Assembly (NCBI GenBank): GCA_963850545.1
Contig: CAWKLP010000002.1
Coordinates: 1,501,934 to 1,565,933, forward strand
Source of the DNA: an uncultured Actinomycetota bacterium
GTDB lineage: Bacteria; Actinomycetota; Actinomycetes; Actinomycetales; Cellulomonadaceae
Length of the DNA: 64,000 bases
Direction of reading: 5' to 3'
Part shown: one piece after another, positions 21,893 to 53,227 of the stretch
Numbering within the stretch: the first letter of the stretch is position 1
How the letters are laid out: each line of letters starts with the position of its first letter
Made by a program: the position numbers and the translations under genes
Notes under the pieces: generated by a model
What the model saw: the letters and a program-made list of their open reading frames with translations, nothing else
The model's database searches: none
Told to the model about the DNA's origin: nothing

Positions 21893-21966
21893 GGGGCTAT
21901 AGCTCAGACGGTTAGAGCGCTTCCCTGATAAGGAAGAGGTCGGAGGTTCAAGTCCTCCTAGCCCCA
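21893..21966 (+). tRNA. tRNA-Ile (GAT)
   Basis: Acceptor GGGGCTA/TAGCCCC, anticodon arm TTCCC-TGATAAG-GAA, GTTCAAGT T-loop; CCA not encoded. Confidence 0.97.
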
Positions 21967-22001
21967 CTCCCGGACCTGCAGAGGCTCCCCAGGAGGAACT
22001 C

Positions 22002-22133: not shown

Positions 22134-22206
22134 GGGGCCATGGCGCAATTGGTAGCGCACCTGCTTTGCAAGCAGGGGGTTGCGGGTTCGAGTCCCGCTG
22201 GCTCCA
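22134..22206 (+). tRNA. tRNA-Ala (TGC), integration target
   Basis: GGGGCCA acceptor, CCTGC-TTTGCAA-GCAGG anticodon arm, GGTTCGAGTCC. Confidence 0.97.
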
Positions 22207-22208
22207 CC
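22171..22208 (+). repeat. attL core (38 bp)
   Basis: AGCAGGGGGTTGCGGGTTCGAGTCCCGCTGGCTCCACC, identical to 49980-50017. Confidence 0.95.
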
Positions 22209-28066: not shown

Positions 28067-29058
28067 GAGATCGCGCGGGTAGGGCGTCGAGGTCGCTGGG
28101 GTGGAGTGTCGCGGGTTAGGGGCGTCGGGCGGGTCGTTGGTTCCAGCGGTGGGTCTTCCATGCCTCGCGGATCAGTCGTCGGGTGACGATGATCGCGTTG
28201 ATCAGGGCGAGGAATGCCTCGATCACGACGGTGCGGCGTTCGGTGCAGATCACGACGATGTTGAAGCCGCGGCTGTTCCAGGAGTTGGTACGTTCTACGA
28301 CCCACCGTCGGGTGTGGTTGATCGGGACGACCTCGCCCTTGGGCTGGATATGACCATCGAACCCGAGCTCGTCGAGCAGCTCGCGGGTGACGTTGCTGTC
28401 GTAGCCGGCGTCCAGGTGCAGGCGCATCTGGTCGGGCAGGTCGAACCCGAACCGGGACAGCTTCTCCAGGGTGGGGCGCAGCAGCGGGGAGTCGTGCCGG
28501 TTCGCTCCGGCGATCACGCAGCCGAGCTGGATACCCCGCTTCTCGGTCAGGCGCGACCACTTGATGCCCAGCTTTCTGCGGTCGACCGGGGACTTCCCGG
28601 CGGCCTGGCCGCCTGCCGGGGCCTTGGTGATCTGCCCGTCGACGCTCACGTCACCGAGCTCGAGCCCGACGATCTTGTCGTAGGCGTCCAGCACGATCTG
28701 CTCCAGCCGCTGGAACACTCCCGCGGCGATCCACTCGTCACGACGGGTCCGGATCGTGGTCGCCGAGCACGTGGCATCGGCGTGCTTCTTGTAGGAGCCG
28801 CTGAAGACCAGCTTTGCCACGATTTTGTCGAACACCACCCTGTCCGGGATGCGCGGGTTGTGACATCCCAACGGGTGATCGTCGTGATGCGCGGGCAGGA
28901 GGGCGGCGAACTGGACCCACAAGGGGTCGATCGCCCATGCTTCAACAGCAGGCACCGGGGACTCCGTGTTCAGATGTAGATCTAGGCAATCCACATCAAA
29001 CCGGACACCCGGTGCCTGCGTCACATCACCCGACCCGCACACCTACCCGCGCGATCTC
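28067..29058. mobile_element. IS5-family insertion sequence (992 bp)
   Basis: Perfect 17-bp terminal inverted repeats GAGATCGCGCGGGTAGG; TTA target duplication at 28064-28066 and 29059-29061. Confidence 0.93.
28116..28955 (-). CDS. IS5-family DDE transposase
   Basis: HPLGCHNPRIPDR, VDGQITKAP, HLDAGYD, RWVVERTNSW. Confidence 0.9.
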   Translation of the reverse strand: MPAVEAWAIDPLWVQFAALLPAHHDDHPLGCHNPRIPDRVVFDKIVAKLVFSGSYKKHADATCSATTIRTRRDEWIAAGVFQRLEQIVLDAYDKIVGLELGDVSVDGQITKAPAGGQAAGKSPVDRRKLGIKWSRLTEKRGIQLGCVIAGANRHDSPLLRPTLEKLSRFGFDLPDQMRLHLDAGYDSNVTRELLDELGFDGHIQPKGEVVPINHTRRWVVERTNSWNSRGFNIVVICTERRTVVIEAFLALINAIIVTRRLIREAWKTHRWNQRPARRP

Positions 29059-31929: not shown

Positions 31930-33507
31930 GTGACCTCGGGCAGCGTGATCGATGCGTACACCAGCGAGCAGGTGCAGACGGCCGTAGCAGGCGCCTTGGC
32001 GGTTGCGCGCAGTGAGGACGAGCTGATCCGGAGGGCTTCGTTCGGCCTGGCGCAGGTGTGTCTGACAGAGCTGCGGGACAGATTCGGATCGGCGCATGGA
32101 CGTACCGCCATTCTCTTTGTCGGCACGGGCAAGAACGGCGCGGACGCGATGGTCGCGGGCAAGCATCTGCGTGAGCGTGGCGTCGCGGTGCACGCGGTCG
32201 CGACCAGCGGCCACGTGGATGCGATCGGGACGCGTCATCTCGACGTCCCGGTCATCGACGCGACCGATGCAGCGGGGCTCAAGCAGGCTCTCGATCTACT
32301 CGCGGGCGCGGACATGGTGGTCGACGGAATCGTCGGCGACGCGATGGTCGGAAGCCTGCGCGCTCCTGCGTGCACCCTCGTGGAGACGATTCCGGACACC
32401 GCTCTGGTCGTCGCTGTGGATCTGCCCAGCGGTGTGGACCCAGATTCGGGCGCGATCAGTGGCGTGCACGTGCGGGCGGATGTCACGGTCACGTTCGCGG
32501 CATACAAGCGGTGCCTGCTGCTGCCTCCGGCAGCCCAGGCCGCGGGACGCTTGGTGTTCGTCGACGTCGGGATCTCGCCGCGCCTCGACCCTGCGGGCGA
32601 GGTCCAGCGACTGACTCCGTCGGGTGTCGCTGAGCGTTGGCCAGTGCCGGGACCTGGTGATCACAAGTATTCGCGTGGCCTGCTCGGCATCGTCGCAGGG
32701 TCGGACCGGTACCCGGGCGCAGCGGTACTGGCGTGCCTGGGCGCCTTCGGGACGGGCGTGGGCATCGTCCGGTATACAGGTCCGCGCCATGTGGGCGACC
32801 TGATTCTGCAGCACGTGCCAGAAGCTGAGAGGTTCCCCGGGAAGGTGGACGGCTACCTGCTGGGCTCAGGCGTGCTCGATGACCCAGATCAGGACCGCGC
32901 GATCGATGAAGCTCTGGCGACCGGTTTGCCATGCGTGGTCGACGCCGGGGCCATCGAGACGTGCGTGCGTCGACGAGCAGCGGGCGACCGGCCCACACCG
33001 GGAGATCGCATCTTGCTGACGCCACATGTCGGTGAGTTGGCTGGTTCCCTGGCCGCGTTCGGGTACGAGGCGACGACGACGGACATCCTCCAGCGGCCTT
33101 ATGAGCACGCGCTGCGGGTCGCGGAGGCGGCCGAGGTGACGGTGCTGTTGAAGGGCTCGACCACGATCGTCGTTGGGCCGGATGGTCGAGCATTCAGCCA
33201 GGACGAAGGGCCTGCTTGGCTAGCCACTGCCGGGTCAGGTGATGTGCTGGCTGGGATCGCCGGTGCGCTCACCTCGGCCGGCCTTACCGCGCTGGACATA
33301 GGTGCCATGGCTGCGTTCGTTCACGGCCGCGCGGCACGTATCGCGGCGGACGACGGCCCGCTGCGAGCCAGCCAGATCGCCGAGCACACGCCGACGGCGG
33401 TGCGGGAACTGCTGGCGGAACGAGAAGCGTCGGTCAGGCCGCGAGCAGGCCGCCGCGGCGGGCGAGGCCGTGCACGTGCGGGCGGGCGCGGGCGCGGTCC
33501 CGAATGA
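31930..33507 (+). CDS. nnr: Bifunctional NAD(P)HX epimerase/dehydratase homologue (YjeF/NnrDE)
   Basis: GTGKNGAD, VAVDLPSGV, HKYSRG, TPHVGEL, LLKG, LATAGSGDVLAG. Confidence 0.85.
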   Translation: MTSGSVIDAYTSEQVQTAVAGALAVARSEDELIRRASFGLAQVCLTELRDRFGSAHGRTAILFVGTGKNGADAMVAGKHLRERGVAVHAVATSGHVDAIGTRHLDVPVIDATDAAGLKQALDLLAGADMVVDGIVGDAMVGSLRAPACTLVETIPDTALVVAVDLPSGVDPDSGAISGVHVRADVTVTFAAYKRCLLLPPAAQAAGRLVFVDVGISPRLDPAGEVQRLTPSGVAERWPVPGPGDHKYSRGLLGIVAGSDRYPGAAVLACLGAFGTGVGIVRYTGPRHVGDLILQHVPEAERFPGKVDGYLLGSGVLDDPDQDRAIDEALATGLPCVVDAGAIETCVRRRAAGDRPTPGDRILLTPHVGELAGSLAAFGYEATTTDILQRPYEHALRVAEAAEVTVLLKGSTTIVVGPDGRAFSQDEGPAWLATAGSGDVLAGIAGALTSAGLTALDIGAMAAFVHGRAARIAADDGPLRASQIAEHTPTAVRELLAEREASVRPRAGRRGGRGRARAGGRGRGPE

Positions 33508-34666
33508 TCAGTTCGCGCAATAGCTCGCGAACGATCGTGGAGTCGTGAACCTCGTCGGAGGAGATCTGCTCGGCGTCCAGTAGGACCAGTGCGGCGGACT
33601 CGTCTTCGCCGCGTCGCACGAAACCCCGGGCCGTGGAGATCAGTGCGGCTGACCGGCGTTCCACGCTTGGGATGTTGTTCAGGTTGAGGCGGGCTGACAG
33701 CTCAACTACGTCGTCCGGGCGCCCGAGCTCGGCGTTGATCGCCACGGCGTGGATGTCGACGTTCCCGGCACCGAACTTCGTCCACGGGTCGTAGTAGCCA
33801 GGCCCGAGGGCGTTGGCTGCGTCCTGCGCGACGCGGTGCAACGCCCAGGCGCGGCCGTCCTGATCGGACTGCGCGGCGCTGACCGCCGCCGCCAGGTGCA
33901 GCATCCCGTACGCGCCCAGAAGGTCCTTGCGCGGATTCGCGGGGTCGATGCGGGTGTGCACCTCGTCGGCAGCGACCAGGCAAATTCGGGTGGCTTCGTC
34001 CTGATGACCTGCGCGCCGGTAAGGACCTGACAGTGCCCAGGCGGACAGCGCGATGAGGTAGGGGTCGTCGGCCTCGCGGGCAATGTGAGCAGCGCGGTCG
34101 GACACGACCCAGGCCAGGTCCCCGGACGGGACGTGGTGCAACCACTGGCGCGTGATCTGGTAGGCGCCCGCCAGCGTGCGAGCGCTGCGCGCCCGGTCCG
34201 ACGACGTGGCATGGGCGGCGTGCGCATCAGCGACGAGTGCGGGAAGAAGGGCACCGACGCCGCGGTGCGCCGAAGGCGACTCATGCCAGATCGTCCAGGC
34301 GTCATCGACGCGGCCCGCCACGTCGGTCAGGTCGGGTGCCGGATCGGTGACCGGGATCGGTCCTGCAGTGCGCATGATGACCTCGCGCAGCGCAGTCACG
34401 GTCTCAGCCTGGGACGGACCGGTGCCAGGGGTCAGCGCATCCAGAGGCCGGCCGATCAAGTCGTCGACGGTGCAGCCGATGACTGACGCGATCCGGACCA
34501 GGTCCGTGAGCCGCTCGGCGTGCCGGCGGCCCTGCTCCACTGCGGAGACCCACTGGACGGACTTGCCGATGCGCTCGGCGAGCGCAAGCTGCGTCACGCT
34601 GGCCGCGCGACGGTGAGCGGCGATTGCCGCTCCCACACCACGTAATAGGTCCGCGTCGTTTGTCAT
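33434..34666 (-). CDS. Xre-family regulator with large helical C-terminal domain
   Basis: IAAHRRAASVTQLALAERIGKSVQWVSAVEQG HTH, followed by ~330 aa of Ala-rich helices. Confidence 0.8.
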   Translation of the reverse strand: MTNDADLLRGVGAAIAAHRRAASVTQLALAERIGKSVQWVSAVEQGRRHAERLTDLVRIASVIGCTVDDLIGRPLDALTPGTGPSQAETVTALREVIMRTAGPIPVTDPAPDLTDVAGRVDDAWTIWHESPSAHRGVGALLPALVADAHAAHATSSDRARSARTLAGAYQITRQWLHHVPSGDLAWVVSDRAAHIAREADDPYLIALSAWALSGPYRRAGHQDEATRICLVAADEVHTRIDPANPRKDLLGAYGMLHLAAAVSAAQSDQDGRAWALHRVAQDAANALGPGYYDPWTKFGAGNVDIHAVAINAELGRPDDVVELSARLNLNNIPSVERRSAALISTARGFVRRGEDESAALVLLDAEQISSDEVHDSTIVRELLRELIIRDRARARPHVHGLARRGGLLAA

Positions 34667-34711
34667 GGCCACCACGATAGGCGGCCTGCGGGGTAACCAA
34701 CAGGCTCAGAA

Positions 34712-34847: not shown

Positions 34848-35192
34848 GTGATGGGACTTCGAGGCCACGACTTGGACCTGGTCAAGCACGATCACCCGAC
34901 GCCGGTCGCCGAGCGGCCGCCGGTCGATGATCTGACGCGCGCGCTGGGCGACGCGTTGACGGCGATACGCGCCCTCGGTCCCAACCGGATCGAGCTGGTC
35001 ACCGTGACCAAGGATCGGATCTCTCTGCAGCCCACGGACCTGGAAGACGGCCAGCAGATCGCCCACGCTCTGGGCTGCGATCTTCCACTGGATCACCGGA
35101 TGTTCGTGCCCGGGCACACACTCTGGACCGGGACCCGCTACGGACTGGAGATTCAGGTCCGGTCGGTCTTGCGTCAGGTGGTGGCCCGATGA
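34848..35192 (+). CDS. Hypothetical protein, first gene of the cluster
   Basis: GAGGGG RBS; ATGA overlap with the HAD gene. Confidence 0.6.
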   Translation: MMGLRGHDLDLVKHDHPTPVAERPPVDDLTRALGDALTAIRALGPNRIELVTVTKDRISLQPTDLEDGQQIAHALGCDLPLDHRMFVPGHTLWTGTRYGLEIQVRSVLRQVVAR

Positions 35193-36313
35193 ACGCCGCA
35201 ACCGTCACCTGCATACGGACCCTCGTGGCGCTCGACATCGACGGGACCCTCGTGGACGGCAAGAGCAAGATCCCGCCCGGGACGGTTGAGGCGCTGGACC
35301 TGGCCCGCGCGGCAGGACACGAGGTCGTACCCGCCTCCGGGCGGTCGCTCGCCGGATTGCTGCCAATCGCGGTCCGGTTGGGGCTTACCGACGGATGGGC
35401 AGTGGCCTCCAACGGCGCCCTGACCGTACGCCTGGATCGGTCCGCGCCGTCGGGGTACGACGTCGTTGACGCCCGGACGTTCACTCCAGGGCCGGTGATC
35501 AGCCGCGCCGTGGACCTGGTCCCGGGTGTCCGGGTCGCGGTGGAGGAAGTCGGGTGGGGGTGGCGCACGAACCACCCCTTCGCCCCGGGAGAGCTCAACG
35601 GGCAGCAGAAGCCAGCGACGCTGGACTACCTGACGTCCGAGCCAGCAACCCGGGTCGTGCTCGCTGCACCAGGCATCGGGCGGTTCGTCGATGCGCTGGG
35701 TGCTGCCGGGGTCACGGTCACCCCGGCGGGGCCGAACTGGTGCGATGTGACAGCGCTCGACGTCGACAAGGCGGTCGCGCTCGATGGGGTGCGTAAGCAC
35801 CTGCACATCCCCGCTGAACGCACGGTGGCGGTCGGCGACGGCATGAACGATCTGACGATGCTGGCCTGGGCCGGGCGCTCGATAGCTATGGGGCACGCAC
35901 CCGCGATCGTGCGCAGCGCGGCCGTCGAAACGACCGGCACGATCGACGAAGCCGGGGCGCTGCCCGTTCTGGCCTCGCTCGTCCCGGACATCGACGGTTC
36001 ACTGTCATCGCTGGCCGCCCAGATTGCGGTCGGGGCGCGCACCGCGCCGGGCCCGGCCGTTTTGCGGGTGTGGCACGGCACCGGGCCGGACCTGTCCCGG
36101 TGCGAGATTTGGACCCTCCAGACTTCGCACTGGGTCCGGCACGCACCTGTCCCGTCCGGCGTCGGCACCACCATGCGCGCAATCGAAGCCGCCGCGCTGG
36201 AGGCGGGCCTGCCGTTCCCACGCGGGGACGAGGGCCGCCGCCGCGCTCAATGGCGCAGTGTCACCACCCGCAGTGGTCCGGCCGGGTTCGAACTCCCGCT
36301 CAACAGTTTCTGA
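35189..36313 (+). CDS. Cof-type HAD hydrolase (phosphatase) with C-terminal extension
   Basis: ALDIDGTL (motif I), ASGRS, DKAVAL, AVGDGMNDLTML. Confidence 0.88.
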   Translation: MNAATVTCIRTLVALDIDGTLVDGKSKIPPGTVEALDLARAAGHEVVPASGRSLAGLLPIAVRLGLTDGWAVASNGALTVRLDRSAPSGYDVVDARTFTPGPVISRAVDLVPGVRVAVEEVGWGWRTNHPFAPGELNGQQKPATLDYLTSEPATRVVLAAPGIGRFVDALGAAGVTVTPAGPNWCDVTALDVDKAVALDGVRKHLHIPAERTVAVGDGMNDLTMLAWAGRSIAMGHAPAIVRSAAVETTGTIDEAGALPVLASLVPDIDGSLSSLAAQIAVGARTAPGPAVLRVWHGTGPDLSRCEIWTLQTSHWVRHAPVPSGVGTTMRAIEAAALEAGLPFPRGDEGRRRAQWRSVTTRSGPAGFELPLNSF

Positions 36314-36486: not shown

Positions 36487-37827
36487 ATGAGTGAGATCGC
36501 AGACAGGACGGCGGGCTCCCGGCAAGGCATGGGCTGGGGTGGCGCGGAGGCAACCGCTGTTGTCGTTCGTCCCGGACCTCGTCTGGCAGGCAGGGTCCGA
36601 GTGGACGGCTCGAAGAACGCGGCACTACCGCTGCTCGCCTGCGCTGCGGTGACGGAAGGGCCGGTGCACGTGTCGAACGTTCCGTCGAGTGCGGATGTGG
36701 GCGTGATGCTCCTGCTCCTGGAACACGCTGGCTTCCAGGTGGACCGCTCGACGGACGATCAGCAGTCCGTGACCGTTCGCCTGGCGTCGGAGCACCGCCC
36801 TCACGGACTGGAGCTCGCTGGGGCCATCCGGGCGTCGTACTACTTGGTTCCCGCACTCCTGGCAGCCCATGGCCGCGCCGACCTGCCGTGGCCTGGTGGC
36901 TGCCAGATCGGAGATCGTGGGATGAACCTGCACTTCGACGTCTACGCCGCATTCGGTGACGAGATCGAGCTTGACTCCACTGGGTACCACGTAGCGGCGC
37001 GGGAGACTCCGGCCCGGGTGACAATCGATCTTCCGTTCCGGTCCCGGGGCGCGAGCGTCGTGGCCGTTCTGCGGGCCGTGGTCGGACGCGTGCGAATGGA
37101 GTTGGGCAACCCGAATCTCTCCCCAGAGTTCACCGGCATCCTCGACAGCCTGCGCTCAGTCGGCTGGCGCATCGATCTGCGTCCGTCCCGCCTCCGGATG
37201 GTTCCACCACAGGTGGTTGACGCTGCGCTGGTGTCGTGGCGGGTTCCCGGAGACAAGGTCGAGGCCGGGACTCTGGCATGCGCGATAGCGGCCACGGGCG
37301 GCAGTGGGCGTGTCGAGGGGGTCGCTGGTCGTGACGTCGAGTGCGTCGCTCGACTTCTCAACAGCGTCGGCGTTGGCATCGGCGTCGAGGACGACGCGCT
37401 CGTCGTCTTCGGCGATGGTGAGCGGATAGGCCATGGTTTGCGAGCGAGCGCATCCCTGGATCCAGCGGGCCTGGACGCCGACTTCGAGCCGGCGCTGATG
37501 GCCCTGGCGCTGTGTTTGCCCGGGACCCACGAGTTTTCCGACGCGATCAACCCCGGACGGCACGGCAATCTGCTGGCGCAGCTCGCCCGCCTGGGTGCGG
37601 ACATCGAGGCGCTGACCGCGACCACGGCCCGCCTGACAGGGCCGCAGCATCTTGCCGGAGGGACGGCAGAGGCTACGGACATCCGTACCGGTTCGGCCCT
37701 ACTCATTGCTGCCTTGACCGCGTACAACGAGACGGCGGTGACTGGACTCGCACAGCTTCGACGTGGGCACGCCGACCTGCCCGGGAAGCTCCGTGCGCTG
37801 GGCGCGGACGTTCGGGAGCGACCGTGA
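36487..37827 (+). CDS. MurA/NikO-like enolpyruvyl transferase
   Basis: DGSKNAALP, IRASYY, PGGCQIGDR, TDIRTG, LRRGH; GGAGG RBS; diverged acceptor-binding motifs. Confidence 0.85.
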   Translation: MSEIADRTAGSRQGMGWGGAEATAVVVRPGPRLAGRVRVDGSKNAALPLLACAAVTEGPVHVSNVPSSADVGVMLLLLEHAGFQVDRSTDDQQSVTVRLASEHRPHGLELAGAIRASYYLVPALLAAHGRADLPWPGGCQIGDRGMNLHFDVYAAFGDEIELDSTGYHVAARETPARVTIDLPFRSRGASVVAVLRAVVGRVRMELGNPNLSPEFTGILDSLRSVGWRIDLRPSRLRMVPPQVVDAALVSWRVPGDKVEAGTLACAIAATGGSGRVEGVAGRDVECVARLLNSVGVGIGVEDDALVVFGDGERIGHGLRASASLDPAGLDADFEPALMALALCLPGTHEFSDAINPGRHGNLLAQLARLGADIEALTATTARLTGPQHLAGGTAEATDIRTGSALLIAALTAYNETAVTGLAQLRRGHADLPGKLRALGADVRERP

Positions 37828-39029
37828 CCGAACGCATCCTGGAGCGGATCGTGGCGACGACTGACGTGCATTCCCAGCTCCGTGAGGTCGGCCCGCTGCT
37901 CGCCGGGCTGCACCGTGCACGGCGCGACGCTCTGGTCGTGGACTGCGGGGACTTCTTCGAGGGAACCGGCTACTACCGACTCGGCCAGGGCCGGATCGAG
38001 ACGGAGATCATGAACTCGATCTACGACGTCGTCGCCCCAGGAAACCACGGCTGGCGCCACCATCTGCAGCCCGGCCTGCGCGAGCTGACCGTGTGCGCCA
38101 ACGTCGCCGACGCCTTCAGCGGCGAGGCACTGTTCCGCCGCCTGCACCGGACCGTCATCGGCGGACGGCGGGTGGGCGTGACCGCCGTCGTTGGCGAGCA
38201 GGCGTTTGCGGCGATACCCATGGGCGAGCGGTCTGGGCACCGTGTCGTCGACCCTGTCAGCGCGCTCATGGACGTGTGGGAGAAGCATCGTCATGAGGTC
38301 GAGGCGTGGGTGCTGCTGTCACACTCCGGCTTTGAACACGATGTTCGCCTCGCCGAGGCTTGCCCGTTCCTCGACGTCATCTTCGCGGGCCACTGCCATA
38401 GTGAGCGCCATGGACCCGAGCGGGTCGGCTCAACTGTCGTCGTCAAGGGGGCTGAACTCGCGGCAGGCTTCTCGACCGCTGCACCAGCCGCGGAAGGTTG
38501 GCGCGCGAGTAGCGCCCGGTTCGAGCCGGTCGACACGCTTTCTGCGCCCCTGGAGTCGTTCGGCCGTCAGGTCGAACTCCTCCGCGACCAGTTGGCGACA
38601 GCGATCGGCCCGCTCGATCCCTCCTGGAGGGACCGCGACCTTGACCGCAGGGCTGCGCTCGAACAGATTGCCCAGCGTCTTCGCACAAGCGCGCCCTCTG
38701 CCGTGGTGGTCCTCAATGAATCCGCGCTGCGACAGGTCCACCTTGGGCAGGTGCTGACCGCCGACAACCTGCTTGCCATCGAACCGTTCGGCAACCGCGT
38801 CGTGCATGCCCGGGTCGAGCACGAGACAGATCTCTCAGCGCTGCTCGCTGAGCTTGGGGAGCGGTCCGGTCCCTTGGTCGTCGACCCCCACTCGGCTCCC
38901 GACCGTGTGAGCAGCGTCCTGACCACGGACTACCTCGCCGAGACGCTTCCCGTTCACAGCCCGCCCACGACAGTTCTCGAACTCAGCCAGGCCGTCCGTC
39001 ATGTCCTCTGCTCGGAGGTTACGTCATGA
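37824..39029 (+). CDS. Calcineurin-like metallophosphoesterase / 5'-nucleotidase-like (no signal peptide)
   Basis: TTDVHS, DCGDFFEG, PGNHG, LLSHSG, FAGHCH. Confidence 0.88.
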   Translation: MTERILERIVATTDVHSQLREVGPLLAGLHRARRDALVVDCGDFFEGTGYYRLGQGRIETEIMNSIYDVVAPGNHGWRHHLQPGLRELTVCANVADAFSGEALFRRLHRTVIGGRRVGVTAVVGEQAFAAIPMGERSGHRVVDPVSALMDVWEKHRHEVEAWVLLSHSGFEHDVRLAEACPFLDVIFAGHCHSERHGPERVGSTVVVKGAELAAGFSTAAPAAEGWRASSARFEPVDTLSAPLESFGRQVELLRDQLATAIGPLDPSWRDRDLDRRAALEQIAQRLRTSAPSAVVVLNESALRQVHLGQVLTADNLLAIEPFGNRVVHARVEHETDLSALLAELGERSGPLVVDPHSAPDRVSSVLTTDYLAETLPVHSPPTTVLELSQAVRHVLCSEVTS

Positions 39030-39562
39030 TCCTCACCGGTCCCGAGATCACTGCATCAGTGCGCGACGGGCGGTTGCGGGTCACGCCGTTCGAGCCCGCG
39101 CAGGTCAACCCGAACAGCTACAACGTGCGCCTTGGCCCGACTCTGATGACGTACGTGGACCCGGTCATTGATGCGCATCGGCCGAACCCGACGTCCATCA
39201 TCGAGATTGGCCCGAAGGGGTACGTGCTGCAGCCGAACGAGCTGTACCTCGGGCACACCCTGGAGGAGGTCGGCTCGGACGTGTTCGTGCCGCTGCTGTT
39301 CGGCCGGTCCTCGGTCGGGCGGCTCGGCCTGTTCGTGGAGATCACCGCCCCGATCGGTGACATCGGCTTCCACGGCCAGTGGACTCTCATGCTCGCCCCC
39401 ACCCGTCCGCTGCGTGTCTACGCCGGGATGAAGATCGGGCAGATCATGTTCTTCGTCGCCGCCGGCCCGCTCGAGCTGTACACGGGCAAGTACCAGGCAG
39501 CGCAGGGGCCGCAGGCCTCGCGCTACTGGCACGACATTCCACGCCCGGCGGCGGCCTCATGA
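39026..39562 (+). CDS. dCTP deaminase-like protein, copy 1 (RSS motif present, catalytic Glu absent)
   Basis: QVNPNSYNVRLG, GRSSVGRLGL, GDIGFHGQWTLM, YTGKYQ. Confidence 0.88.
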   Translation: MILTGPEITASVRDGRLRVTPFEPAQVNPNSYNVRLGPTLMTYVDPVIDAHRPNPTSIIEIGPKGYVLQPNELYLGHTLEEVGSDVFVPLLFGRSSVGRLGLFVEITAPIGDIGFHGQWTLMLAPTRPLRVYAGMKIGQIMFFVAAGPLELYTGKYQAAQGPQASRYWHDIPRPAAAS

Positions 39563-40095
39563 TCCTGACCGGCCCCGCGATCGCCGCCGCCGTCGCGGCC
39601 GGAGATATCACCATCGACCCGTTCGACCCGAACCGGCTGTCCGCGAACGCGTACGACTGGCGGCTCGGGTCAACGCTTCGGGTCTGCACCACGGATCTGG
39701 ACGCCGCGATTCCGACCCCCTTTACCGAGGTCACCATCCCTGAGTCGGGGTACGTCCTGGAACCCGAGGTCCTGTATCTCGGGGTAACCCTGGAGCAGAC
39801 GGCCTCCGACCGGTATGCCCAGATGCTCAACGGCGACCTTGTCACCGGCCGCCTCGGTATCTGGGTGCACGTCTCCGCGCCGCTGGGCCATGTCGGGCAC
39901 GCGATCCGCTGGACGCTGGAGATTCGCGCCGTCAGACCCGTTCGCATCTACCCGGGCATGACGTTCGGCAAGCTCATCTTCCTGCGCACTTACGGGGCGG
40001 CGGCCAGCTACCAGCAGCTCGGCCGCAAGTACACGTCGACCGACGGCATCGATATCTCCCGGCTCCACGAGGAACTCCAGGAGGACAACCCGTGA
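39559..40095 (+). CDS. dCTP deaminase-like protein, copy 2 (Glu present, RSS motif absent)
   Basis: RLSANAYDWRLG, GDLVTGRLGI, GHVGHAIRWTLEI, GRKY. Confidence 0.8.
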   Translation: MILTGPAIAAAVAAGDITIDPFDPNRLSANAYDWRLGSTLRVCTTDLDAAIPTPFTEVTIPESGYVLEPEVLYLGVTLEQTASDRYAQMLNGDLVTGRLGIWVHVSAPLGHVGHAIRWTLEIRAVRPVRIYPGMTFGKLIFLRTYGAAASYQQLGRKYTSTDGIDISRLHEELQEDNP

Positions 40096-41177
40096 CCGCT
40101 CGTGTGGCGACCTTCCTCGATCTGCCGGCGGCAAGCCCCGGCGGCAGCGTGGAACTGTTCCGCGATCTGTACGCCGGCACCGACCCGCTCATCCCCGCAC
40201 GAGCATTCATGCTCGACGCCGGCCACAACGGGCTCCCAGCCGTTCCCGGTCTGGGCCTGCTCGCGGTCGACGGCAAGTGCCTCGACGAGCCCGGATTCAC
40301 GGCGTACGTCACCGCCCTGCACCGCGCCCTGGCCGATGTGCTCGACCCGGGGGATGTCGATGTCGTCCACCTGCAACACCTCGCCTTCGGTGCCACTCCG
40401 GCGCTCCTGCGAACGCTCCCGGGCCACCCGGCCGTCGCCTTGGTCCACGGGACTGACCTGCTTTTCGCCGAGACCTACCCTGACCAACTGCGAGTCCTGC
40501 GCGACACAGTCCGCCGCGCGGACGCAATCGTCGTACCCACCTCGGCCATGGCAGACCGACTCCGCGTGCTGGCCCCAGCCGCGGATCGGGTAATGAAGAT
40601 CCCCTGGGGCATTCCCGACCACCTCCTCGCCGGACCGCTTCCACGACGCTCGTCCCCGAAGGGCACGCAACGGCTCATGTACGCGGGCAGGCTGACCCCC
40701 GAGAAGGGCGCCGACCGCCTCATCCAAGCCCTCGGTGCGGCCACGAACTTCACGCTCAGCATCGCCGCGCCGCCTCACGAGTTCCGCGCCCTCGGCCCAT
40801 CCCTACGACGGGCCGGGGTCGACGTCGACTACCTCGGGTGGCTCTCTCGACCCGATCTGTGGAAGGCATTCGCGGACCACGACGCGCTACTCATGCCCTC
40901 CACCACCCTGGAGGCCATGGGTCTGGTCGCCCTCGAAGCGCAAGCCTGCGGACTGCCCGTGCTCTACCAACCCGTACCCGGACTCGACGAGACACTCGGC
41001 GAGGCCGCCATGCCCACCGACTTCACCGACCCGGACCAAGTCGCGGCCAACCTGCGTCACCTCGCGTCGCCCGACCTGGTCGACGACCTCCGAGCTGCCG
41101 CCCGCACCAACGCCGCTCGCTTCCCCTTGTCCGCTACCGCCGCCTCGTTGAGCCAGCTCGGCGACAGCCTCGCCTGA
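40092..41177 (+). CDS. GT-B family 4 glycosyltransferase
   Basis: HGTDL, YAGRLTPEKG, PSTTLEAMGLVALEAQACGLPV (E-x7-E). Confidence 0.9.
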   Translation: MTARVATFLDLPAASPGGSVELFRDLYAGTDPLIPARAFMLDAGHNGLPAVPGLGLLAVDGKCLDEPGFTAYVTALHRALADVLDPGDVDVVHLQHLAFGATPALLRTLPGHPAVALVHGTDLLFAETYPDQLRVLRDTVRRADAIVVPTSAMADRLRVLAPAADRVMKIPWGIPDHLLAGPLPRRSSPKGTQRLMYAGRLTPEKGADRLIQALGAATNFTLSIAAPPHEFRALGPSLRRAGVDVDYLGWLSRPDLWKAFADHDALLMPSTTLEAMGLVALEAQACGLPVLYQPVPGLDETLGEAAMPTDFTDPDQVAANLRHLASPDLVDDLRAAARTNAARFPLSATAASLSQLGDSLA

Positions 41178-41255: not shown

Positions 41256-42301
41256 ATGCCCTCCACCACCGAACACCTCCACGCCCTGGCGACCGCAGGA
41301 GTCCACAACGGCGTCTACCCCGGTGCAGTGTGGGCCGTCGGCAACGCCGACGGCGTGATCGACCGCGGCGCCACCGGCCTCCTGGACCCAACACGTTCCG
41401 ACGAGCCCATGAAGCCGGACACCGTGTTCGACATCGCGAGCCTCACCAAGATCCTCGCCGTCTGGACCACCATCGGGACCCTCTGGCAGGACAGGCACCT
41501 GGACCTCGACGAGCCCCTCGGCCAGCTCTGGCCCGGCGTCGCCGGATACCCGCTCGGCCAGGTCACCGCCCACCAGCTCCTCACCCACACCGCCGGACTG
41601 CCGCTGCGCGCCCAGCTCAAGAGCCTCTACGGCACCGACCCTGACGCCATCCGAAGCGGCGTCCTGCACGAAGCCCTGCACCGCCCACCGGGCCAGGCCG
41701 TGGAGTACACCGACCGCGCCGCCCTCATCCTCGGCTACCTCGCCGAGTACCTCAGCGGCGAGCAGTTGGACCATCTCGCCACCGACCGCGTCTGGCGGCC
41801 CGCTCGGCATGCGAGAGACCCGATATGGACCCCTGCCGACGAACGTGGCCGCGCGCTGCGCCCCCACCGAGCTCGACGACGAGACCGGCGCGCACCTCAA
41901 GGGCGTCGCTCACGACTTCTCCGCCCGCCTTCTCGGCGGCGTATCCGGCATCGCCGGAGCGTTCTCCACCCTCGACGACCTCACCGTGCTGCTGCGCTAC
42001 CTGCTGGACCCTGCCACCGCCGCGACGCCCCCGGGCTTCGGTCCCGAGTGGATCGCGCGAGTCCCTCAACGTCCACACCGGCGGCCTCGAACCGGCACGG
42101 GGCCTGTTCTGGCACCCGGCTCCCGGCACCGACCCCGCCGACCAGACCTGGACCCACTACGGCTTCACCGGCACCGCCATCTGGCTCAACCCGAAACAGA
42201 ACCACTGGGCGGTCCTGCTCACCAACAAGCTCTACTACACCCGCGACCGCGAACCCCTCGCTAGCATCCGCGACCAGTTCCGCGGCATCGTCTTCGGCTG
42301 A
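41256..42301 (+). pseudogene. Beta-lactamase-related serine hydrolase, two apparent frameshifts
   Basis: ASLTK (SxxK), EYTD, HYGFTG. Reading frame shifts near 41800 and 42060; could be real decay or assembly error. Confidence 0.8.
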
Positions 42302-42553: not shown

Positions 42554-42659
42554 GATCCCTCCCTCAAATTCCATCACGCCTCTTGCAGATTGAGGTACAT
42601 AGAGCAATTCCGGACCTGGTTCCGCTCGGACACCTCCTGCTGTAGGAGGTGTGCAGCGG

Positions 42660-45600
42660 ATGGCTGCGACGATTGCTGTGATGTCGGCAGGGGATGGGTA
42701 CTCGTACTTCATGAAGTCGGTCGCGACCGGCGACGTGGACCGGTCGATGAGTACCCCGTTGACGCGGTACTACACCGAGACCGGGACCCCGCCGGGCCGG
42801 TGGCTGGGTTCCGGGGTCGCGAGCCTCGGCTCAGACGAGCTGGGTCGCCTGCTCGTAGGCGATCTGGTGACCGAGGAGCAGATGGCCCGGCTCGTGGGCA
42901 AGGGCCTGGACCCGATCACCGGCGAACAACTCGGCCGCGCCTACCCGGTCTACGGCAAGGGCAAGGGCGGCAAGTCTCGGCGGGCGGTGGCGGGATATGA
43001 CTTCACGTTCTCGCTGCCGAAGTCCGCCTCGATCCTGTGGGGCGTGTCCGACGCCGGGATCCAGGAACAGATCGTCGCCGTCCACCGCGCCGCGGTGGTC
43101 AAGGTGTTCGAGTTCATGGAACACGAGCTGGCCGCGACTCGGACCGGTGCGTCTGTCGCCGGGAACGCGACGAGCGAGGCAGGGGAGGGCGGCGCGGTCG
43201 CCCAGGTCGACGTCACCGGTTTGATCGCGATGTTCGTTCGATCACTGGGACTCGCGGACCAACGACCCGCACCTGCACACCCACGTCGTGGTCTCCAACA
43301 AGGTCAAGACGCTGCTCGACGGGAAGTGGCGGTCCCTGGACGGGCGCGGGTTGCACGCCGCGACGGTCGCGATGTCCGAGCTGCACGAAGCGATCGTGAT
43401 GGACGACCTGACCCGCACCCTCGGCGTGGGAGTGGGAACTACGGGCCAGGGCCGGGCAGGGCCGTAACCCGGCTGGTCGATCAAGGGCGTCCCGGACGAC
43501 CTGGTCGATTGCGTTCTCCCAGCGCTCGGAGCAGATCAACACCCGCACCGACGAACTGATCGCGCAGCACGTCGCGAAGTACGGGCGCCGGCCCAGCCCG
43601 AGCACGATCGACAAGTACCGCCAGCAGGCCAGCAAGGAGACCCGCCCGGACAAGACCCACCACTCCCTGGCCGACCTGACCACGGAGTGGCGGCAACGCA
43701 CCGCCGAGATCCTGGGCCGTGACCCAGGCAGAGTGGGCTCGCGAACTGGTCGCGAACCTGCCGCCGCGGATGCTGCGAGCCGATGACGTCCCGCTGGACC
43801 TGCTCGACGACCTTGCACAGACAGTGCTGATCGTGGTCTCGGAGAAGACGCCGGTGTGGCGACACTGGAACCTGTACGCCGAAGCCGTCCGGCAGACCAA
43901 AGATCTGAGGTTCGCCACCGCCGAAGACCGCATGGCCGTGGTCGCTGCGATCACCGATCGGGCCGAGGCTGGCTCGGTGCGGCTGACGCCGCCCGACCTC
44001 GCTGCCACGCCTGCCGAGTTCCGGCCGCGCGGACGGCACCAGCATCCTGCGCCCGAAGCACTCCGCCCTCTACTCCTCACAAGCCCTGCTCGACGCAGAG
44101 GCCCGGCTCCTGGACCGGGCCAGTACCCGCACCGCACCGACGATCACGCTGGACGCCGTCGAGCACGCCATCACCAAGGGCAGCCCCGGCGAGCGGGCGT
44201 GGACGGTCTCAGCCGAGCAGGCCGAAGCCATCGCCCGTGTCGCTGTCTCGGCCCGGCAGGTCGACCTGCTGGTCGGCCCGGCCGGGACGGGGAAGACCAC
44301 GACCATGCGCGCTCTGCGCGCGGCATGGGAGCAGCGAGCACGGGGCAGGGTCCGTGATCGGGCTGGCGCCGTCGGCTGCGGCTGCGGCGGTCCTGGCCGA
44401 TGACCTGGGCATCGAGTGTGAGAACACCGCGAAGTGGCTCTACGACCACGTCCACCAAGGCACGGCGTTCCGTGACGGGGCAGTTGGTCATCATCGACGA
44501 AGCCACGCTCGCCGGGACCCTCACCCTGGACCGGATCACCGCGCACGCCGCGGAGGTGGGGGCGAAGGTGCTGCTGGTCGGTGACCCGGCCCAGCTCCAG
44601 GCCGTCGAGGCCGGCGGAGCCTTCGCTCTCCTGGCCGCCGCCCGCAACACCGAGGACGGTGTGCCGGAGCTGACCGAGGTGCACCGGTTCACTGCACACG
44701 TGGGAGAAGCACGCCTCCCTGGCCCTGCGCCACGGACACGACGAGGCGATCGACGCCTACCTGGACCAAGGCCGGGTCCGCGACGGTGACACAGAGGCCA
44801 TGGTCGAGGCCGCCTATGCCGCCTGGCAGACCGACCTCGCAGACGGCAAGGACTCCGTGCTCGTCGCCGGGGACAACGAGACCGTGCGGGCGGTCAACGA
44901 GCGCGCCCGCGCCGAACGACTCCAGACCGGGGCCACTGAACCCGGCCGGGCTGTTCGACTCGCCGACGGGCTCGACGCTTCGGCAGGGGACGTGGTCATC
45001 ACCCGGCGTAACGACCGCCGCCTGTGCACCCGGAACGGCTCCTGGGTACGCAACGGCGACCGGTGGACCCTCGTCCAGGTCCGCGACGACGGGTCGGTCA
45101 TCGTGCGCCGACCGGAAGCCAAGTACGGCAACACGATCGTGCTCCCCGCCACCTACGCCGCCGAGCACTTCGACCTCGGCTACGCCGTGACCACCTACCG
45201 CGCCCAGGGGATCACGGTCGACACGAGCCACCTCATCACCGGGCCGGGCATGACAAGGGAGCACCTGTACGTCGGCCTGACCCGCGGGCGGGAGACCAAC
45301 ACCGCCTACGTCATCACCGACACCCCATTGGAGATCACGCCTGACGACTACGAGGACCTGACACCCAGGGGCGTCTTGGCCCGGATCGTCCGCACGGTCG
45401 GAGCCGAGAAGGCCGCCACGCAGGCGCGTCGGGACGAGCGCGAGCGGTGGGGATCGGTCGCACAGCTCGCCGCCGAGTACGAAACCCTCGCCGCAGCCGC
45501 ACAACGCGACCGCTGGACCGGACTCCTCCACCACTCCGGACTCTCAGCCCGCGACGCGGACCAGGTCATCACCGCACCCGCATTCGGAGCCCTGACCGCC

Positions 45601-46179
45601 GAGCTCCGCCGCGCCGAAGCCGACGGCCACGACGTCGAACACCTGCTGCCCCAACTCGTGGCCCAGCGCGGCCTGGACGACGCCGACGACGCGGCAGCCG
45701 TCCTGCACCACCGCCTTGCCACAGCCACCACACAACCCGTCCGCCACGACGGGCTGAGCATCCAACGCCGCTCGCCGCGCCGAATCGCGGGCCTTCTCCC
45801 TGAGGCGATCGGACCTATGACGAGCGAATACCGGCAGGCACTCCAGGAGCGGGCAGCACTGATCGAGCGACGCGTCACCGACATCGTCCAGCGCGCCATC
45901 CATGACCATGAACCCTGGCTCGCCCCGCTCGGCCCCGAACCAGGCGACACCAGAGCCCGACGCACCTGGCAGACCGCCGCACGCACGATCGCCGCTTACC
46001 GCGACCGCCACGGCATCAGTAGCGCGGCACCACTCGGCACCGAGCCAGTCACCACCGACGCACAGGCCGTCGACGCCGCGCGCTCCGCGACGGCGCTACG
46101 TCGAGCGACACGACCCCCGAGCGCACAGCTCCGGCGACCAGCCGTCGGGGCCCACGAGGGTCGAGGTATCGGCATGTAG
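42660..46179 (+). pseudogene. MobF/TrwC relaxase-helicase, multiply frameshifted
   Basis: VMSAGDGY, RYYTETGTPPGRWLG, YDFTFSLPKS, out-of-frame FDHWDSRTNDPHLHTH (HUH), GPAGTGKT, IIDEA, VGDPAQL, GYAVTTYRAQG. Confidence 0.88.
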
Positions 46180-49979: not shown

Positions 49980-50017
49980 AGCAGGGGGTTGCGGGTTCGA
50001 GTCCCGCTGGCTCCACC
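49980..50017 (+). repeat. attR core (displaced tRNA-Ala 3' half, followed by A completing CCA)
   Basis: Identical to 22171-22208. Confidence 0.95.
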
Positions 50018-51547: not shown

Positions 51548-52564
51548 TCAGTCCCCCTGCTTGGTCTCCCCCGGCGGAACCTCGTCCACGATCGGCTCGT
51601 CCTTCGCGGCCGGAGCCGCTTTGGTGGCCTTGGTGTCCGCTGCCTTCGGCGTGGTACCGGCGGGGCTGTCGGCGCCGCTGCGACCGGCCTTCTGCGCAGC
51701 GTCGGACACCACAGTGCTCGCCTTCTGCGCCGTCGACTTCGCCGCGTCGATTACCGGAGCGGCCTTCTCCTTGGCGGCGTCGAACACCGGGGCCGCCTTC
51801 TCCAGCACCGGCCCGGCCTTCTCCTTGGCCGCCTCGAACGCGGGGCTCGCGGCCGAGTAGGCCCGAACGCCGAGGTCCTTGGCCGTCTGCGCGGCCTTGG
51901 CTCCCGCCTCCTTGCCCTTGGCGACCGCGGAACCTGCCGCGGAGCCGACGCCGGACGAGTGCTTCGCGGCGCCGTCCGAGTAGTCGGCTCCCGAGCCCTG
52001 CTCCCATGGCTCGGCCCACGGGTCGGTCTGGGGCTGCGCGCGCTTCCAGAACACATAGCCCGCGACGGCGGCGCCGCCCGCGACCAGCGCTACGAGCCAG
52101 CCCTTCTTGGAGCTCTTCTTGCTGGCCTGGTCCGCCGCCTCGGTGACGGTCTCGGCGAGCGATGCCTTGCCCTGGGCCGCCGCGGCGTTGGACGCCGCCG
52201 CGTTGAACGCGGAGACCATCTTCGGCAGCAGGTCGTCCACGAGCTTGTCGTGTGCGGAGTCGATGAGCGGCGCAGCCTTCCCCGCCGCCTTCTCGACCTG
52301 CGGAGCAGCGGCCTGGAGGCTGTCCTGCCACGCCTTCTCGGCGCGCGGCGTCAGCCAGGCGATGAAGTCGTTGACGCGGGGCTGGGCCCATTCCTTGGCG
52401 TTCGAGGCCCGGTCCTTGGCCTGGGCCGCGATGGACCCCGCCTGTGTCGCGGCTTTGGAGCTGACATCGGAAAGCAGAGCTGTGGCCTCCGCGGCCCTCT
52501 CCTTGACCTTCTCGGTGTCGATCTTGCTCGTGTCCACGTAGTCGGTCACTTTCTTGCGGGTCAT
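51548..52564 (-). CDS. Ala/Lys-rich hypothetical membrane protein
   Basis: One TM segment (GWLVALVAGGAAVAGYVFW), DPWAEPW, AKEKAAPV repeats. Confidence 0.7.
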   Translation of the reverse strand: MTRKKVTDYVDTSKIDTEKVKERAAEATALLSDVSSKAATQAGSIAAQAKDRASNAKEWAQPRVNDFIAWLTPRAEKAWQDSLQAAAPQVEKAAGKAAPLIDSAHDKLVDDLLPKMVSAFNAAASNAAAAQGKASLAETVTEAADQASKKSSKKGWLVALVAGGAAVAGYVFWKRAQPQTDPWAEPWEQGSGADYSDGAAKHSSGVGSAAGSAVAKGKEAGAKAAQTAKDLGVRAYSAASPAFEAAKEKAGPVLEKAAPVFDAAKEKAAPVIDAAKSTAQKASTVVSDAAQKAGRSGADSPAGTTPKAADTKATKAAPAAKDEPIVDEVPPGETKQGD

Positions 52565-52687: not shown

Positions 52688-53227
52688 ATGTTCGCAATCC
52701 TGCATACCACCTCCGGTGACATCCGCATCGAGCTCTTCCCGAACCACGCGCCCAAGACTGTCGAGAACTTCGTCGGCCTCGCGACCGGTGAGAAGGCCTG
52801 GACGGACCCGCGGACGGGTGAGGAGCGCAAGGACCCGTTCTACGACGGCCTGATCTTCCACCGCGTCATCGACGACTTCATGATCCAGGGCGGCTGCCCG
52901 CTCGGTACGGGAACCGGCGGCCCGGGGTACACGTTCAACGACGAGATCCACCCGGAGCTCCAGTTCAACGAGAAGTACATCCTCGCGATGGCCAACGCCG
53001 GCAAGCGCCGGAACCCGGTCACCGGGGAGATCGAGGGCACCAACGGGTCGCAGTTCTTCCTCACCACCGCCGAGACCCCGTGGCTGAACGGCAAGCACAC
53101 GATCTTCGGCAAGGTGGCGGACGACGCGTCGCGTGAGGTCGTCGACCGGGTCGGCAAGACGCGTACGCGTCCTGGCGACCGCCCGGTCGACGACATCACC
53201 ATCGAGTCCGTCACCATCGAGCCCTGA
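52688..53227 (+). CDS. ppiA: Cyclophilin-type peptidyl-prolyl isomerase
   Basis: APKTVENFVGLA, FHRVIDDFMIQGG, GTNGSQFF, WLNGKHTIFG. Confidence 0.96.
   Translation: MFAILHTTSGDIRIELFPNHAPKTVENFVGLATGEKAWTDPRTGEERKDPFYDGLIFHRVIDDFMIQGGCPLGTGTGGPGYTFNDEIHPELQFNEKYILAMANAGKRRNPVTGEIEGTNGSQFFLTTAETPWLNGKHTIFGKVADDASREVVDRVGKTRTRPGDRPVDDITIESVTIEP

Follow-up and report, generated by a model that had tools for sequence, protein, structure and literature searches.

A pair of adjacent genes encoding paralogous proteins of the dCTP deaminase (DCD) fold, DCD1 and DCD2, lies in a 64,000-nucleotide (nt) stretch of DNA from an uncultured actinomycete (contig CAWKLP010000002.1). This whole stretch is termed the window, and all coordinates are numbered within it. 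Each of the two proteins has lost catalytic residues that the other has kept. The best-supported reading, to which we give somewhat better than even chances, is that DCD1 and DCD2 assemble with each other into a mixed trimer (or hexamer). A mixed trimer is favoured because the deaminase glutamate is strictly conserved in the chain that lacks the required serine and arginine, because the two genes are coupled, because such pairs recur in other operons, and because fused analogues carry the same pattern. To our knowledge, all characterised dCTP deaminases and bifunctional dCTP deaminase-dUTPases (DCD-DUTs) are homo-oligomers with identical sites. Full-text literature searches returned no description of a natural heteromeric dCTP deaminase, of the six-gene operon that carries the pair, or of the wider family of pairs described below.

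Two open reading frames (ORFs) occupy exactly the interval, 39026–40095, where the initial annotation had placed tandem dCTP deaminase paralogues. DCD1 (39026–39562, plus strand) encodes 178 amino acids (aa), starts with ATG and is preceded by GGAGG. DCD2 (39559–40095, plus strand) also encodes 178 aa, with its true start at the ATG at 39559, and the DCD1 stop and DCD2 start share a 4-nt ATGA overlap. The proteins are 40% identical to one another (E 4e-39) and both match the Pfam family PF22769, ‘dCTP deaminase-like’ (E 4.5e-40 for DCD1 and 5.4e-25 for DCD2). On TIGR02274, the NCBIfam dCTP deaminase equivalog profile with a cutoff of 92.8 bits, DCD1 scores above the cutoff (101.1 bits) and DCD2 below it (62 bits). 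Their closest solved relatives are the DCD-DUTs of Mycobacterium tuberculosis and Bacillus halodurans and the Escherichia coli enzyme Dcd, with PDB matches for the pair at E 4e-19 and 9e-13. An AlphaFold2 monomer model of DCD2 (predicted local distance difference test, pLDDT, 81; predicted template-modelling score, pTM, 0.75) matches M. tuberculosis DCD-DUT (2qxx/4a6a) with a Foldseek TM score of 0.81. DCD2 is thus predicted to have the Dcd fold, the least confident part of the model being residues 91–120, which comprise the motif II and hairpin region.

Motif positions were assigned by aligning both proteins to M. tuberculosis DCD-DUT. For E. coli Dcd we use transferred numbering, which fits Ser111, Arg115, His121, Asp128, Trp131 and Glu138. 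The alignment places the complementary losses where the initial annotation had claimed them. In motif II (E. coli Arg110-Ser111-Ser112..Arg115), DCD1 keeps Arg94-Ser95-Ser96..Arg99 within G93-R94-S95-S96-V97-G98-R99-L100-G101 (39302–39328, plus strand), including the equivalents of Ser111 and Arg115. The equivalent segment of DCD2, G92-D-L-V-T-G-R98-L-G (39832–39858, plus strand), reads Asp93-Leu94-Val95..Arg98 and has lost the RSS. In the hairpin, DCD2 retains the catalytic glutamate as Glu121 (WTLEI), and DCD1 carries Met122 there (WTLML; codon ATG, 39389–39391, plus strand), at the site of E. coli Glu138 and M. tuberculosis Glu129. The DCD2 hairpin extends over 39889–39921 (plus strand), from His111 (cat, 39889–39891) through Glu121 (gag, 39919–39921). 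At the Asp128 position DCD1 keeps Asp112 (GDIG) and DCD2 has His111 (GHVG). The aromatic sugar gate, Trp131 in E. coli, is preserved as Phe115 in DCD1 and replaced by His114 in DCD2. The C-terminal lid is intact in DCD1, GKYQAAQGPQASR, and diverged and degenerate in DCD2.

We refer to a chain that keeps the Asp and loses the Glu as B-type, and to one that keeps the Glu and loses the Asp as A-type; by their motifs DCD1 is classed as B-type and DCD2 as A-type. At the position of E. coli His121, a residue conserved in Dcd enzymes, DCD2 keeps a histidine (His104) and DCD1 has Glu105. The Glu105 codon lies at 39338–39340, and other pair families are swapped here, with Gln in the A-type and His in the B-type. 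The E. coli residue was studied as H121A in PDB 2j4h.

The reciprocal losses are conserved. A scan of 185,579 species representatives, with one genome per species, found relatives of the pair-bearing operon in 305, and 80 loci were kept and examined; homologue counts refer to the best 120 homologues listed for each protein. Close homologues of DCD1 (75–97% identity) occur in Streptomyces, Kitasatospora, Nonomuraea, Planotetraspora, Embleya, Yinghuangia and others. GRSSVGRLGL, the hairpin Asp and WTLML are invariant in DCD1 across 80/80 loci, and GRSS and WTLML are present in 120/120 DCD1 homologues. DCD2 has His at the Asp site together with the Glu in 80 of the 81 sequences drawn from the loci, none of which has RSS; likewise, the H..H..E pattern is found in 117/120 DCD2 homologues and RSS in 0/120. 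Conservation of the reciprocal substitutions in homologous clusters, a check the initial annotation had put forward, was thus seen in every cluster examined. The same six genes, encoding a MurA-like protein, a metallophosphoesterase, DCD1, DCD2, a glycosyltransferase of family GT4 and a serine hydrolase, occur in the same order in 74–80 of the 80 loci, and the 4-nt overlap between DCD1 and DCD2 is retained in 73. DCD1 and DCD2 are under strong constraint and surpass the rest of the operon in conservation: compared with the window copies they average 80% and 73% identity, and the other four genes 68, 63, 59 and 53%.

This conservation bears directly on whether the pair might simply be a recent duplicate in decay, made up of one or two pseudogenes with no joint function. 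Both copies are substituted at residues essential in E. coli Dcd, and the neighbouring serine hydrolase is frameshifted, as decay would have it. Nonetheless, identities of 73–80% are held from Promicromonospora to Streptomyces, Nonomuraea and Amycolatopsis, and intact ORFs, only 40% identity between the two proteins and invariant ‘defects’ effectively refute decay, which we regard as vanishingly improbable. Because the reciprocal pattern is conserved across loci and homologues, both chance and decay are excluded as its source.

Conservation within the two proteins is uneven. In DCD1, motif II scores 1.00 and the hairpin 0.98; in DCD2, the corresponding values are 0.86 and 0.97. The exact Ser111 and Arg115 positions are variable in DCD2, whereas its hairpin is 97% conserved. 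The Arg115 equivalent, Arg98 in the window, is kept in 4/120 DCD2 homologues and is mostly Ala or Ser elsewhere, and 108/120 have an Arg four residues earlier. Codons 94 (39838–39840) and 98 (39850–39852) both encode Arg in 3/120 and neither does in 10/120. Arg98 with Leu94 is confined to a few sequences, mostly Promicromonospora-like, and Arg94 with Ala or Ser at 98 is found in most others. This alternation suggests that the degenerate motif II of DCD2 still needs one Arg.

The same distribution speaks to the idea that DCD2 is a pseudoenzyme without catalytic activity, which regulates DCD1 or sets its specificity by capping or tuning it, for instance by sensing nucleotides allosterically through the central channel. 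DCD2 has indeed lost motif II, the Asp and the canonical lid, and trimers of the DCD family communicate allosterically through their central channel (PMC4827122). However, its most conserved residues are those of the catalytic hairpin (His104, His111, His114 and Glu121), a pattern that looks catalytic or ligand-binding and not structural, and we judge an inert DCD2 to be quite improbable.

A mixed trimer finds a structural rationale in the architecture of the superfamily. In dUTPase-superfamily sites, one subunit contributes the hairpin (motif III and the Glu strand) and its neighbour contributes motif II, with the RSS and the Arg (PMC12524310). DCD and DCD-DUT enzymes share a trimeric core with active sites at the clefts between subunits (PMC4827122). 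The initial annotation, which had sites built from neighbouring subunits, thus had the geometry right for the fold (PMC12524310), and fused DCD proteins agree with it.

These fused proteins, metagenomic single chains, came from an exhaustive search of representatives. P0242 (532 aa) and P0243 (549 aa; locus L090, 1189–2838) each have three DCD domains, and P0290 (347 aa; locus L088, 8001–9044) has two. In P0242 and P0243, domain 1 has lost motif II and keeps the hairpin Asp and Glu, domain 2 has lost both motif II and the hairpin, and domain 3 keeps motif II (RSS..R) and has lost the hairpin (Ser, Gly). In P0290, domain 1 keeps motif II with a dead, degenerate hairpin, and domain 2 has lost motif II and has a hairpin with His and Glu, so that its domain order and pattern are those of DCD1 followed by DCD2. 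All three proteins therefore retain a single hairpin and a single motif II, carried by separate domains, and so share with DCD1 and DCD2 a reciprocal loss that here resides on one polypeptide. They differ in being only 33–38% identical to DCD1, in being metagenomic and in having ordinary-looking chromosomal neighbourhoods; they are analogues, not orthologues. Their motifs mark them as naturally occurring pseudo-trimers or pseudo-dimers within the DCD branch, and they show that losses complementary to each other in one assembly do occur in the DCD fold, with the geometry that a composite site requires. A fold search also matched PDB 2r9q, a two-domain ‘dCTP deaminase’ of Agrobacterium, between which and P0290 no sequence similarity was detectable.

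The pairing itself recurs well outside the window operon. A tblastn search against plasmids revealed further tandem DCD pairs, at 40–51% identity, in quite different operons of Streptomyces, Nonomuraea, Nocardiopsis and Rhizobium. Each of these pairs combines a B-type chain, with the Asp and a Gln at the Glu site, and an A-type chain, with the Glu and a His, Gln or Asn at the Asp site. Across the unrelated operons with A- and B-type chains (L082–L086, L091 and L092) the two are nearly always adjacent or overlapping, also where a methyltransferase or a dikinase is fused to the B-type. For example, the operon on a plasmid of Streptomyces sp. NBC_00239 (L082, 4308–18513) encodes an Erm-like ribosomal RNA adenine N6-methyltransferase, a phosphodiesterase, TauD, the DCD pair, a PIG-L deacetylase, WbqC and a GT4 enzyme. 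It further encodes a prolyl-tRNA synthetase-like protein with an editing domain, a MurG-like protein, HIT and SDR proteins and two radical-SAM proteins. In gene content this operon resembles a cluster for a nucleoside antibiotic together with resistance genes. The window phosphoesterase and GT4 are 35% and 38% identical to their counterparts there, and because these copies are homologous, the phosphoesterase, the pair and the GT4 form a shared core. Operons of pFRL6, Nonomuraea and Nocardiopsis combine a P-loop kinase-like gene, the pair, an S-adenosylmethionine (SAM) methyltransferase and a large GT4, with an additional cytidine deaminase in pFRL6, and a Rhizobium plasmid joins the pair to a methyltransferase and a NUDIX gene.

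B-type domains with the Glu-to-Gln change also occur fused to a SAM methyltransferase, to a PPDK_N/PEP-utiliser dikinase or to HAD (P0244–P0246, P0252, P0253 and P0263). In both fusion neighbourhoods that were checked (L091 and L092), a separate A-type gene lies just upstream, and its product resembles DCD2 in having a His and Glu hairpin and a degenerate motif II (GLRSTGSLG and ACRSVSTLG). The L092 operon also encodes an MFS exporter, an APH-type kinase, a HIT protein and an AMP-binding (adenylating) enzyme, a gene content that suggests an exported small molecule as its product. The window pair is thus one case of a wider, older A/B family within nucleotide-tailoring operons.

The principal competitor of a mixed trimer, which we consider a serious but unlikely one, is that the two proteins form separate homotrimers, working one after the other or side by side. 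DCD1 would act as a pyrophosphatase on (d)CTP/(d)UTP without deaminating it and would supply the MurA-like protein, the phosphoesterase and the GT4 with a nucleoside monophosphate, and DCD2 would act on a different, non-triphosphate substrate and need neither motif II nor the lid. In favour of this, DCD1 still has motif II, the hairpin Asp, the aromatic gate and the lid, its hairpin is fully conserved, and it passes the dCTP deaminase equivalog cutoff. Glu-to-Gln variants, and Glu-to-Ala ones, of the Methanocaldococcus jannaschii DCD-DUT have reportedly lost deamination (e.g. PDB 3gf0 and 2hxd). The fusion of Glu-to-Gln B-type domains to a methyltransferase, a dikinase or HAD would likewise suit a nucleotide-processing module. 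Two homotrimers would, however, make it hard to explain why DCD2 strictly keeps the deaminase Glu and the His121 equivalent when it lacks the Ser and Arg that deamination requires. Moreover, an A-type gene accompanies the B-type in every operon examined, fusions included, and complementary loss inside a single assembly is seen in the fused proteins of two and three domains.

Several further observations weigh against a mixed trimer. The DCD1 hairpin is as conserved as that of DCD2 (0.98 vs 0.97), and there is no decayed half-site. DCD1, which lacks only the Glu and the His121 equivalent, could by its motifs work alone. The DCD2 motif II region, with an Arg at either of two alternative positions in most orthologues, may bind a ligand. 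The A-types of L082–L084 and L086 keep RSS..R, the Glu and all else but the Asp, and the L085 A-type also keeps RSS..R, with Asn at the Asp site. The A-type in L082–L086 could therefore suffice for deamination as a homotrimer, and being paired does not in itself imply a mixed trimer. DCD2 is itself weakly closer to other A-types (39–40%) than to B-types (33–40%). Lastly, the placement of Ser111 and Arg115 on a neighbouring subunit in Dcd is drawn by analogy from dUTPase motif II homology and from the fused proteins.

If DCD1 and DCD2 do form a mixed trimer, its sites can be sketched from the motifs. At the DCD2-to-DCD1 interface, DCD2 would give His111, His114 and Glu121, and DCD1 would give Arg94-Ser95-Ser96 and Arg99 and probably also the intact C-terminal lid. 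Each trimer would have one complete deaminase-type site, in which His replaces the Asp that trimeric dUTPases use hydrolytically; the sequence pattern argues against three equivalent sites. The DCD1 hairpin (Asp112, Phe115 and Met122) would be unable to deaminate. Together with motif II of a second DCD1, it could form a triphosphate-binding, possibly pyrophosphatase-type site, and the two chemistries of the bifunctional DCD-DUTs may be split over two kinds of interface. Because the DCD1 hairpin is conserved, an interface containing it is probably not simply dead. DCD1, alone or at DCD1–DCD1 interfaces, could thus be a non-deaminating (d)NTP pyrophosphatase, an option overlooked by the initial annotation. 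That annotation had also suggested that the heteromer is obligate, and that it possibly acts on a new substrate such as a ribo- or modified cytidine nucleotide, to which the contrast between Phe115 in DCD1 and His114 in DCD2 points weakly. At the sugar-gate position other pairs have Ser or Ala, and the presence of His114 in place of an aromatic gate would be compatible with a ribo- or 2′-modified nucleotide.

The other genes of the operon suggest what such an enzyme might feed. From the MurA-like gene to the GT4 gene, all four junctions are 4-nt overlaps in the window. The MurA-like enolpyruvyl (carboxyvinyl) transferase (36487–37827, plus strand, 446 aa; PF00275, E 1e-32) is nearer to MurA (PDB 3r38, E 4.5e-43) than to NikO (4fqd, E 2e-21), although its 231 bits fall below the murA equivalog cutoff of 392.7. 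Equivalents of the catalytic Lys22, Cys115 and Arg120 of E. coli MurA appear by eye to be present, in GSKNAALP and GGCQIGDR. The calcineurin-like metallophosphoesterase (37824–39029, plus strand) has a 5′-nucleotidase-like N-terminal domain (PF00149, E 2.8e-8; PDB 5′-nucleotidases, E ∼1e-8). The gene shares GTGA with the end of the MurA-like gene and ATGA with the beginning of DCD1. The GT4 glycosyltransferase (40092–41177, plus strand, 361 aa; PF00534 and PF13692) shares a GTGA overlap with the DCD2 stop, and its best solved relative is a UDP-glucose:tetrahydrobiopterin glucosyltransferase, followed by PimB and MshA-like enzymes. The Pfam label ‘GT4-conflict’ was not used for it, as that family scores below the generic GT4 families. 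Translations read by eye show metal motifs in the phosphoesterase and an EX7E motif in the GT4, and by sequence all three enzymes look competent.

The last gene of the operon encodes a serine hydrolase of the beta-lactamase fold (41256–42298, plus strand; PF00144; SxxK = SLTK) with two frameshifts, near 41800 and 42055. Searching with an intact Streptomyces orthologue by tblastn recovers it in three pieces, in frames +3, +1 and +2. The three-piece form is also present in Promicromonospora loci L001 and L003, and the Streptomyces copies are intact. By these sequences, either the hydrolase gene has become a pseudogene in this lineage or the pathway can do without its last step. Upstream of the operon, a Cof-type HAD phosphatase (35189–36313, plus strand; PF08282, E 2e-34) is limited to the Promicromonospora versions, with matches in L001–L003 only among the loci examined. 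A divergent XRE-family helix-turn-helix (HTH) regulator (33434–34675, minus strand, 413 aa; PF13560) is 26% identical to the HTH protein of L081, and comparable large HTH regulators (∼410–440 aa) flank DCD-pair operons on Streptomyces plasmids. A search of PADLOC-DB v2 defence profiles gave no match for the six operon proteins and weak HTH matches for the regulator alone.

In nikkomycin and polyoxin biosynthesis, NikO/PolA transfers an enolpyruvyl group to the 3′-OH of uridine monophosphate, and mycothiol-type logic has the GT4 MshA act before a phosphatase. By analogy with NikO/PolA and MshA-type chemistry, the window operon would most likely convert a cytidine- or uridine-type nucleotide to a glycosylated and/or enolpyruvylated nucleoside derivative. 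The pathway might lead from the nucleotide to a monophosphate, then through enolpyruvylation and/or glycosylation to dephosphorylation. As a broader and more doubtful proposal, offered tentatively, the pair may represent a hitherto unrecognised heteromeric enzyme class whose two inter-subunit sites differ chemically, one being a His/Glu site and the other an Asp/Met(Gln) site. Such an enzyme would commit a cytidine-type nucleotide, possibly ribo- or sugar-modified, to mobile pathways making exported or DNA-directed modified pyrimidine nucleosides, and the window product would be an enolpyruvylated and/or glycosylated nucleoside serving as antibiotic or antiviral chain terminator.

The operon is horizontally mobile cargo. 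The window is the replication-origin region of a Promicromonospora-like actinomycete, with dnaA, dnaN, recF, gyrB and gyrA, then ppiA and pknB, and its nearest loci are in Promicromonospora (96–97% identity). Between gyrA (17817–20483) and ppiA (52688–53227) lies a 27.8 kb integrated element (22171–50017) that carries the operon. At its two borders, 38 nt of the tRNA-Ala 3′ end are repeated exactly and in direct orientation (22171–22208 and 49980–50017). The genes for tRNA-Ile (21893–21967) and tRNA-Ala (22134–22208) adjoin its left end. In addition to the operon and the XRE-type regulator, the element carries an integrase (22663–23982), a ParB-like gene, an IS4/IS5-family transposase (28116–29042, minus strand; DUF4096 and DDE_Tnp_1) and remnants of a TrwC relaxase. 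These comprise an N-terminal relaxase domain (42651–43559) and, ∼1.2 kb downstream, a UvrD_C-like helicase remnant (44800–46179). As the relaxase appears fragmented, the element may no longer be self-transmissible.

Streptomyces versions of the operon are located on plasmids, and at 26–34 of the 80 loci it adjoins a NikA/MobC-like mobilisation gene and a putative relaxase. A role in housekeeping nucleotide metabolism was rejected, given the location of the operon on a tRNA-Ala island, on plasmids and beside mobilisation genes. Phage genomes contained no DCD pair, solely distant single Dcd genes at ≤34% identity. The sequencing runs that contain this DNA are soil metagenomes exclusively, with no RNA runs among them. 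Separately, two adjacent 54-nt units with 74% identity (51740–51847) lie inside an ORF at 51548–52564 (minus strand) and are probably a repeated peptide segment of its protein.

Databases label DCD1 and DCD2 homologues alike as ‘dCTP deaminase’. If the mixed-trimer reading is true, hundreds of such annotations in actinomycetes would be corrected, and the heteromer of two gene products, with its composite site, would provide a clean example of subfunctionalisation where subunits meet. The pair also marks a conserved, mobile and uncharacterised six-gene operon, as well as a broader group of operons that contain genes for methyltransferases, kinases and glycosyltransferases, for an exporter and for resistance-like functions. 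New nucleoside natural products or conflict systems based on nucleotides could plausibly come from such operons.

Set beside known pathways, the operon follows NikO/PolA and MshA logic in joining a MurA/NikO-family transferase to a nucleotide phosphoesterase and to a GT4 related to enzymes that glycosylate small acceptors, a likeness that we offer as a lead. Unlike the NikO pathway, its MurA-like protein is nearer to MurA, and the window operon has no radical-SAM partner. Compared with known Dcd and DCD-DUT enzymes, the pair is alike in fold, sequence homology and length, and motif II, the hairpin and the lid are all recognisable in DCD1. Those enzymes assemble as homotrimers or homohexamers, with the Ser, Arg, Asp and Glu on each chain, whereas the set is incomplete in both DCD1 and DCD2. 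DCD1 has Met for the Glu and Glu for the His121 equivalent, and DCD2 lacks the Ser, usually the Arg, and the Asp (His). The pair also differs in residing in a mobile tailoring operon, not in nucleotide housekeeping.

The nearest parallels come from elsewhere in the superfamily. Duplication and fusion gave rise to the monomeric dUTPases of herpesviruses, which retain only one motif set (PMC12524310). Like the DCD pair, these enzymes and the covalent pseudo-heterotrimeric dUTPase of Drosophila virilis combine duplication within the superfamily with complementary loss. The herpesvirus-type split, in which one unit has motif III and the other motif II, is encountered again across DCD1 and DCD2 and in the fused P0290, P0242 and P0243, and the match is partial in that the DCD1 hairpin has not decayed. 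The herpesvirus and D. virilis enzymes are single chains, whereas DCD1 and DCD2 come from two genes that belong to the DCD branch and are translationally coupled, and, unlike in those dUTPases, the surviving DCD2 hairpin carries the deaminase Glu together with a His in place of the hydrolytic Asp.

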